A stretch of 64,000 nt of DNA from Escherichia coli (GTDB taxonomy: Bacteria; Pseudomonadota; Gammaproteobacteria; Enterobacterales; Enterobacteriaceae). Positions 25,362-25,719 of this stretch are shown here, in pieces. The stretch lies in NCBI RefSeq assembly GCF_003334785.1, contig NZ_QOWV01000005.1, one strand, 5' to 3'. The translations under genes were made by a program, and so were the position numbers. Each line of letters begins with the position of its first letter. Position 1 is the stretch's first letter. Below the pieces are notes generated by a model. The model saw nothing but the letters and a program-made list of their open reading frames with translations. It was not told the origin of the DNA and ran no database searches.

Positions 25362-25362
25362 T

Positions 25363-25389
25363 AAAAAGGCGCTGAATGGCGCTTTTTTA
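25363..25389. terminator. Hairpin terminator downstream of amiC
   Basis: A-tract, GCGC stem with TGAATG loop, then T-tract (AAAAAGGCGCTGAATGGCGCTTTTTT). Confidence 0.55.
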
Positions 25390-25434
25390 TGGGAGACCAG
25401 AAACAAAAAAACACCCGTTAGGGTGTTCAATAAT

Positions 25435-25511
25435 TGGTTGCGGGGGCCGGATTTGAACCGACGACCTTCGGGTTATGAGCCCGACGAGCTACCAGGCTGC
25501 TCCACCCCGCG
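25435..25511 (-). tRNA. metZ: Initiator tRNA-fMet (CAU anticodon), single copy
   Basis: Minus-strand 77-nt sequence CGCGGGGTGGAGCAGCCTGGTAGCTCGTCGGGCTCATAACCCGAAGGTCGTCGGTTCAAATCCGGCCCCCGCAACCA; CTCATAA anticodon loop and three consecutive G-C pairs typical of the initiator tRNA; TATAGT -10 just upstream (plus coordinates ~25520-25530) and hairpin+T-run terminator downstream (~25404-25430). Confidence 0.95.
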
Positions 25512-25719
25512 TCCGTGGATGCGCACTATACTCCGCTCGCGTTTTCATGCAACCTTTTTTTTACCCCGATCACGGATTTGGCATGATTTTGAACAAAAAC
25601 AAATCACTAAAGCCTATTTTTTGTGCAAAATTTGCGTCAGGGAGAGGCTGCTCATTTCATTAAACGCGGCGGTTTGTTATCTTCGTTGCGCCTTATTTTT
25701 TAACCTGAAGAAGAGAACA

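Follow-up and report, generated by a model that had tools for sequence, protein, structure and literature searches.

The metZWV operon in the 64-kb stretch of Escherichia coli DNA analysed here (the window) contained a single initiator tRNA gene at the place where K-12 carries three in tandem, and with a probability of about 0.55 this single copy represents a genuine, recent deletion of two 110-bp units. Since a deletion and a collapse of the tandem repeat during assembly yield identical sequence, the two cannot be separated by the sequence alone. The locus was compared with K-12, with 5426 complete E. coli genomes, with close relatives, and with a second tandem tRNA array, glyVXY, as a matched control for collapse.

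ARAGORN identified a tRNA-Met(CAT) gene at 25435–25511 on the minus strand as the sole tRNA gene in the window, and the same 77 nt matched the Rfam tRNA model with 61.4 bits (E = 2.3e-12). In agreement with the original prediction, the gene lies in a 358-bp intergenic spacer (25362–25719) between the stop codon of amiC at 25361 and the ATG of mltA at 25720; the spacer was delimited by alignment of one-, two-, and three-copy loci, BLAST of the window against K-12, and extraction of flanks and spacers. A search of the whole 64-kb window for an inter-gene spacer remnant or a second partial tRNA-fMet gene found none. The longest ATG-started open reading frame of amiC in the window runs from 24018 to 25361 (447 aa), and RefSeq AmiC in identical relatives begins at 24108 (417 aa), a difference of start-codon choice only.

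In K-12 (NC_000913.3), metZ, metW, and metV occupy 2947387–2947683 as 77-nt genes separated by 33-nt spacers, giving a period of 110 bp, and the three tandem copies that the original prediction attributed to K-12 are annotated there. The prediction had also proposed a comparison of spacer length with reference genomes: three-copy genomes have 578 bp between amiC and mltA, 220 bp more than the window. The window was collinear with K-12 positions 2,908,898–2,973,117 in reverse orientation, with 11 mismatches by BLAST and 99.98% identity, and its only indel relative to K-12 across 64 kb was the absence of 220 bp, exactly two 110-bp units, in register. The flanks of the locus were identical to those of K-12. 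The sequence bordering the retained tRNA gene corresponds on the amiC side to that beside the terminator-proximal gene and on the mltA side to that beside the promoter-proximal gene, and any position of the 77-nt copy could hold the breakpoint. The window locus therefore shares with the K-12 metZWV operon its position between amiC and mltA, its divergent orientation from mltA, its promoter region, tRNA sequence, terminator, and initiator identity elements, but it holds one gene rather than three tandem identical genes at a 110-bp period, and both 33-nt inter-gene spacers are absent. The metW-metV spacer, one of the two, is reported to be a weak Hfq-binding element of the metZWV precursor, which measures roughly 500 nt (PMC10710024), and the one-gene operon of the window is without it.

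The retained gene was assigned to tRNA1-fMet from ARAGORN, Rfam, its predicted fold, and its exact identity with K-12 metZ, metW, and metV. It has a CAU anticodon (cat at position 35 in ARAGORN), its minimum-free-energy fold is a cloverleaf, and the CCA end is encoded in the gene. Hallmarks of bacterial initiator tRNAs are a C1xA72 mismatch and the pairs G29-G31:C39-C41 (PMC3017606). The mismatch was present, as the tRNA starts with C and an A precedes the ACCA end; the first pair was called non-canonical by cmscan, and position 1 was unpaired in the fold. The anticodon stem, UCGGG/CCCGA in both sequence and fold, contains the G29G30G31/C39C40C41 pairs. Position 46 distinguishes tRNA1 from tRNA2 in K-12, G rather than A marking tRNA1-fMet (PMC3017606), and the variable loop AGGUC places a G there, which is the metZWV type and not the K-12 metY type. 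Given its 100% identity to the products of K-12 metZ, metW, and metV, the encoded tRNA is expected to be formylated by Fmt and to bind directly to the P site.

The intrinsic terminator of the tRNA operon was located by a terminator scan at 25409–25428 on the minus strand (GAACACCC-TAAC-GGGTGTTT, followed by a T-run) and has the same sequence as the terminator 3' of metV in K-12. A metZ promoter was predicted from the sequence at 25525–25552 on the same strand, with a -35 element TTGCAT (25552–25547), a 16-nt spacer, and a -10 element TATAGT (25530–25525). An A-tract lies upstream of it (about 25555–25562), and a GC-rich discriminator separates the -10 element from the 5' end of the tRNA. A strict sigma-70 consensus scan made no call of this promoter, the -35 element matching the consensus at only 3 of 6 positions. 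Its placement is proposed from the 100% identity of the region with K-12 and from agreement with the -10 region of metZWV as published, where a G immediately precedes the -10 box and a T is part of it (PMC3017606).

Under the preferred reading, a genuine deletion, the metZWV operon would have been cut to one tRNA1-fMet gene between a K-12-identical promoter region and the native terminator. The identical 77-nt direct repeats would have served as substrate for unequal homologous recombination or for slippage during replication, with loss of the two 110-bp units. Such a mechanism is suggested by the in-register junctions and by general knowledge of tandem-repeat instability; the longest exact repeats at metZWV measure 81–94 bp. 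The surviving gene would presumably be transcribed and processed normally. That the loss is clean and in register, with no other indel against K-12 in 64 kb, speaks for this reading, as does the genuine variation in copy number of this array in E. coli.

To quantify this variation, copies in the 5426 complete genomes were counted with diagnostic queries and strict E-value cut-offs passed by full-length matches only. Coverage counts from ordinary BLAST summaries were discarded, as these joined repeat pieces in an order-dependent manner, merged one- and two-copy arrays, and split three-copy arrays. At least two tandem copies were present in 5194 genomes, at least three in 5000, at least four in 67, and at least five in 26, corresponding to 232 genomes with one copy or fewer (4.3%), 194 with two, 4933 with three (90.9%), 41 with four, and 26 with five. 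This distribution predicts 10287 spacer-containing places, and 10287 were observed. An artificial ceiling behind the round figure of 5000 was ruled out by this exact match and by the 5194 genomes with at least two copies.

Expansions cannot arise by collapse and speak for real change at the array; strain HS, listed twice as independent assemblies, had four copies in both. In two-copy arrays on a single flank haplotype, either of the two spacer types may be the one that was kept, a sign that such arrays arose independently. The exact architecture of the window, one copy with both K-12-type flanks, was found in 109 of the 5426 genomes, different strains that include J53, K-12 C3026, BR1220, WP7-S17-ESBL-04, and GF66.1, and its two-copy equivalent with K-12-type flanks in 116. 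Forty-four one-copy assemblies were 100% identical to the window over 277 bp around the tRNA gene.

Further observations were made at the extremes of the distribution. The 26 genomes with at least five tandem tRNA-fMet copies (e.g., AR_0137, MRSN346595, MRSN346638, 961, and CRE389) all scored 737 bits where listed and were human isolates where a host was recorded, which points to a single lineage that has inherited its expanded array. Plasmid records matched the tRNA-fMet array at 5, 1, and 2 places in three separate queries; these could be mislabelled chromosomal pieces or genuine plasmid-borne initiator tRNA arrays. In an ST648 genome (NZ_CP008697.1, 3858000–3880000), a five-gene cluster lies between amiC and the metZ promoter region and encodes a PRD-domain regulator, a PTS EIIC component, a frameshifted MalY/PatB, a KpsF/GutQ isomerase, and a phosphoglycerate dehydrogenase. 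Such an alternative flank on the amiC side might explain part of the 123 genomes with one copy or fewer, and of the 78 with two copies, in which K-12-type flanks are missing. Over the same interval of the ST648 genome ARAGORN found no tRNA gene, and an 'N' stands exactly at the place of the array.

The principal rival explanation holds that the organism has three (or two) copies and that its 110-bp units were fused into a single one during assembly, to which we give somewhat less than even odds. The control array glyVXY (K-12 NC_000913.3 4392360–4392658) bears on it directly. It resembles metZWV in being a copy-number polymorphic tandem of three identical tRNA genes (76 nt) with short, near-identical spacers (36 and 35 nt), and its longest exact repeat is 96 bp, compared to 94 bp at metZWV. 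In the same 5426 assemblies, glyVXY was reduced to one copy or fewer in 46 (0.85%), five times less often than metZWV, and one copy with K-12 flanks was found in 15, compared to 109 for metZWV. Generic collapse should strike both arrays about equally, so that the five- to seven-fold excess at metZWV argues for most one-copy metZWV calls being real. At glyVXY the common variant has two copies (about 1668 genomes, with at least three in 3712), apparently a common natural polymorphism. Collapse is also made less probable by the modest length of the exact repeats at the two arrays, 81–96 bp, a length exceeded by modern reads and by the largest k-mers, and by the remainder of the window, which is without indels against K-12.

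The distribution of the one-copy state among assemblies, however, speaks against the deletion and in favour of collapse. One-copy assemblies were grouped by strain series (GF, STK/STS, ABW/OW, WP-ESBL, and TUM) and by accession block, unrelated K-12 derivatives in adjacent blocks both being single-copy (J53 with ME8067; MC1061 with OV2). Assemblies from the O104:H4 outbreak of 2011 disagreed, 2011C-3493 having one copy and HUSEC2011 two, and the ambiguous base and missing tRNA at the ST648 array point in the same direction. Four assemblies were single-copy at both of the unlinked arrays: MC1061 (CP195014.1), OV2 (CP195020.1), O104:H4 2011C-3493 (NC_018658.1), and PapRG-04-4 (CP049201.1). These made up 4 of the 15 glyVXY single-copy assemblies, far above the chance expectation of 0.3 (hypergeometric P = 1.8e-4), and are probably collapsed at short tandem tRNA arrays. 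On the other hand, none of the GF, STK, ABW, and WP assemblies appeared in the glyVXY single-copy list. In read data, collapse would be recognized by reads containing TCACCGTACTGCTTT(T)ACTTCATCAAATTT(G/TA)AT.

Comparison with close relatives bears on both readings. The closest relative found, Z1323HEC0011, differed from the window by 2 SNPs over positions 1–42757 (42.7 kb) and has three copies. A state that separates such near neighbours is not a lineage trait and must stem from a very recent event or an artefact; any real deletion would thus be very recent, a point that counts against the deletion and is readily accommodated by collapse. Also consistent with collapse, no perfect match to the window was present among the complete RefSeq genomes listed as best hits, the best 24–25 kb matches among the complete genomes listed being 1–2 mismatches away, and the window may thus derive from a draft assembly. 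Relative to all six comparison genomes, the window had private alleles at positions 10416 and 30257. The A at 10416 is synonymous in ppdC codon 21, and the A at 30257 lies in the divergent gcvA-gcvB intergenic region (K-12 2942641), where the annotated start of gcvB is 55 bp downstream.

It is very improbable that one copy is the inherited norm in the clade or species background of the source strain, an option that the original prediction had left open. A phylogroup-A one-copy subclade is conceivable from the 44 one-copy assemblies with the 277-bp flank haplotype of the window, but the window is E. coli, a species in which nine genomes in ten carry three copies, and references of the same lineage were not uniformly single-copy: besides Z1323HEC0011, P377, likewise close by SNPs, has three copies, and the close relative MIN9 has two. 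The one-copy genomes BR1220 and WP7-S17-ESBL-04 were more distant (5 and 13 SNPs per 50 kb, respectively). Moreover, the one-copy state occurred on several flank haplotypes of 98.2–100% identity, in K-12 derivatives (J53, ME8067, C3026, MG1655p, MC1061, and OV2) as well as in O104:H4 2011C-3493 and O157:H7 Xuzhou21. Among other K-12 derivatives, two copies were found in DH5a, C600, and MT102, three in MG1655 and XL1-Blue, and four in XL10-Gold.

Changes of this kind are known from related systems. Tandem amplification of metZ-metW-metV was selected in Salmonella, as cited in PMC6393288, where the number of array units likewise shifts through recombination between repeats and dosage has fitness effects; the case described there is an expansion and not a contraction, obtained by laboratory selection under pressure from an Fmt inhibitor or an fmt defect, and in another species. 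Loss of some initiator tRNA genes was advantageous in poor media according to Samhita, Nanjundiah, and Varshney (2014), as cited in PMC9981150. Those engineered strains, and the metZWV deletion and promoter-down mutants described elsewhere (PMC3017606; PMC11480407), have in common with the window a reduced initiator-tRNA dosage, but their alleles were constructed, whereas the reduction in the window, if real, would be spontaneous and would have kept one intact gene. Within the literature collection searched, no survey of natural metZWV copy number was found. The population survey, with metZWV at 1 to 5 units and single-copy more often than glyVXY, is mildly new. What the gene and the locus are, how their copy number changes, and what follows from such changes were already known, and the architecture is present in more than 100 public assemblies. 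The window locus shows either one of the ordinary, already catalogued copy numbers of a well-studied array or the collapse of that array in assembly.

The statement in the original prediction that initiator tRNA dosage affects initiation fidelity and growth is backed by the literature. The level of tRNA-fMet in E. coli tracks gene copy number, and a low level reduces the fidelity of initiation; upon severe reduction, non-initiator tRNAs can initiate, and cells grow slightly less well and become sensitive to cold (PMC3017606). Loss of the whole metZWV unit strongly impaired growth in specific conditions (PMC11480407). In the one-copy genome GF66.1, the tRNA-fMet query matched exactly one further place, which is likely metY. 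If the single copy in the window is real and the usual metY is present elsewhere in the genome, the strain would have roughly half the normal initiator-tRNA gene dosage. Published work associates a lower dosage with growth that is slightly slower in rich medium, with an advantage in competition in poor medium, and with some loss of fidelity in start-site and initiator selection, and the strain may be expected to show such a phenotype.

If the single copy is an artefact, it serves as a warning that some finished genomes give wrong copy numbers for short tandem tRNA arrays. If it is real, it concerns a dosage that in E. coli influences how fast cells grow, how they fare in rich as opposed to poor media, how sensitive they are to cold in extreme cases, and how strictly initiators are selected (PMC3017606; PMC9981150; PMC11480407). 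More speculatively, and in our view unlikely, metZWV could be a naturally fast-changing dosage locus of 1 to 5 units, in which contraction is recurrently selected in nutrient-poor niches, on storage, or in auxotrophic backgrounds, with the window as a fresh natural contraction by which initiator-tRNA gene dosage is halved. Were this true, it would explain why arrays of one copy or fewer are five times commoner at metZWV than at glyVXY, as well as the origin of many one-copy isolates from wastewater, surface water, and food, and it would provide a field counterpart to what Samhita et al. (2014) found in laboratory competitions.
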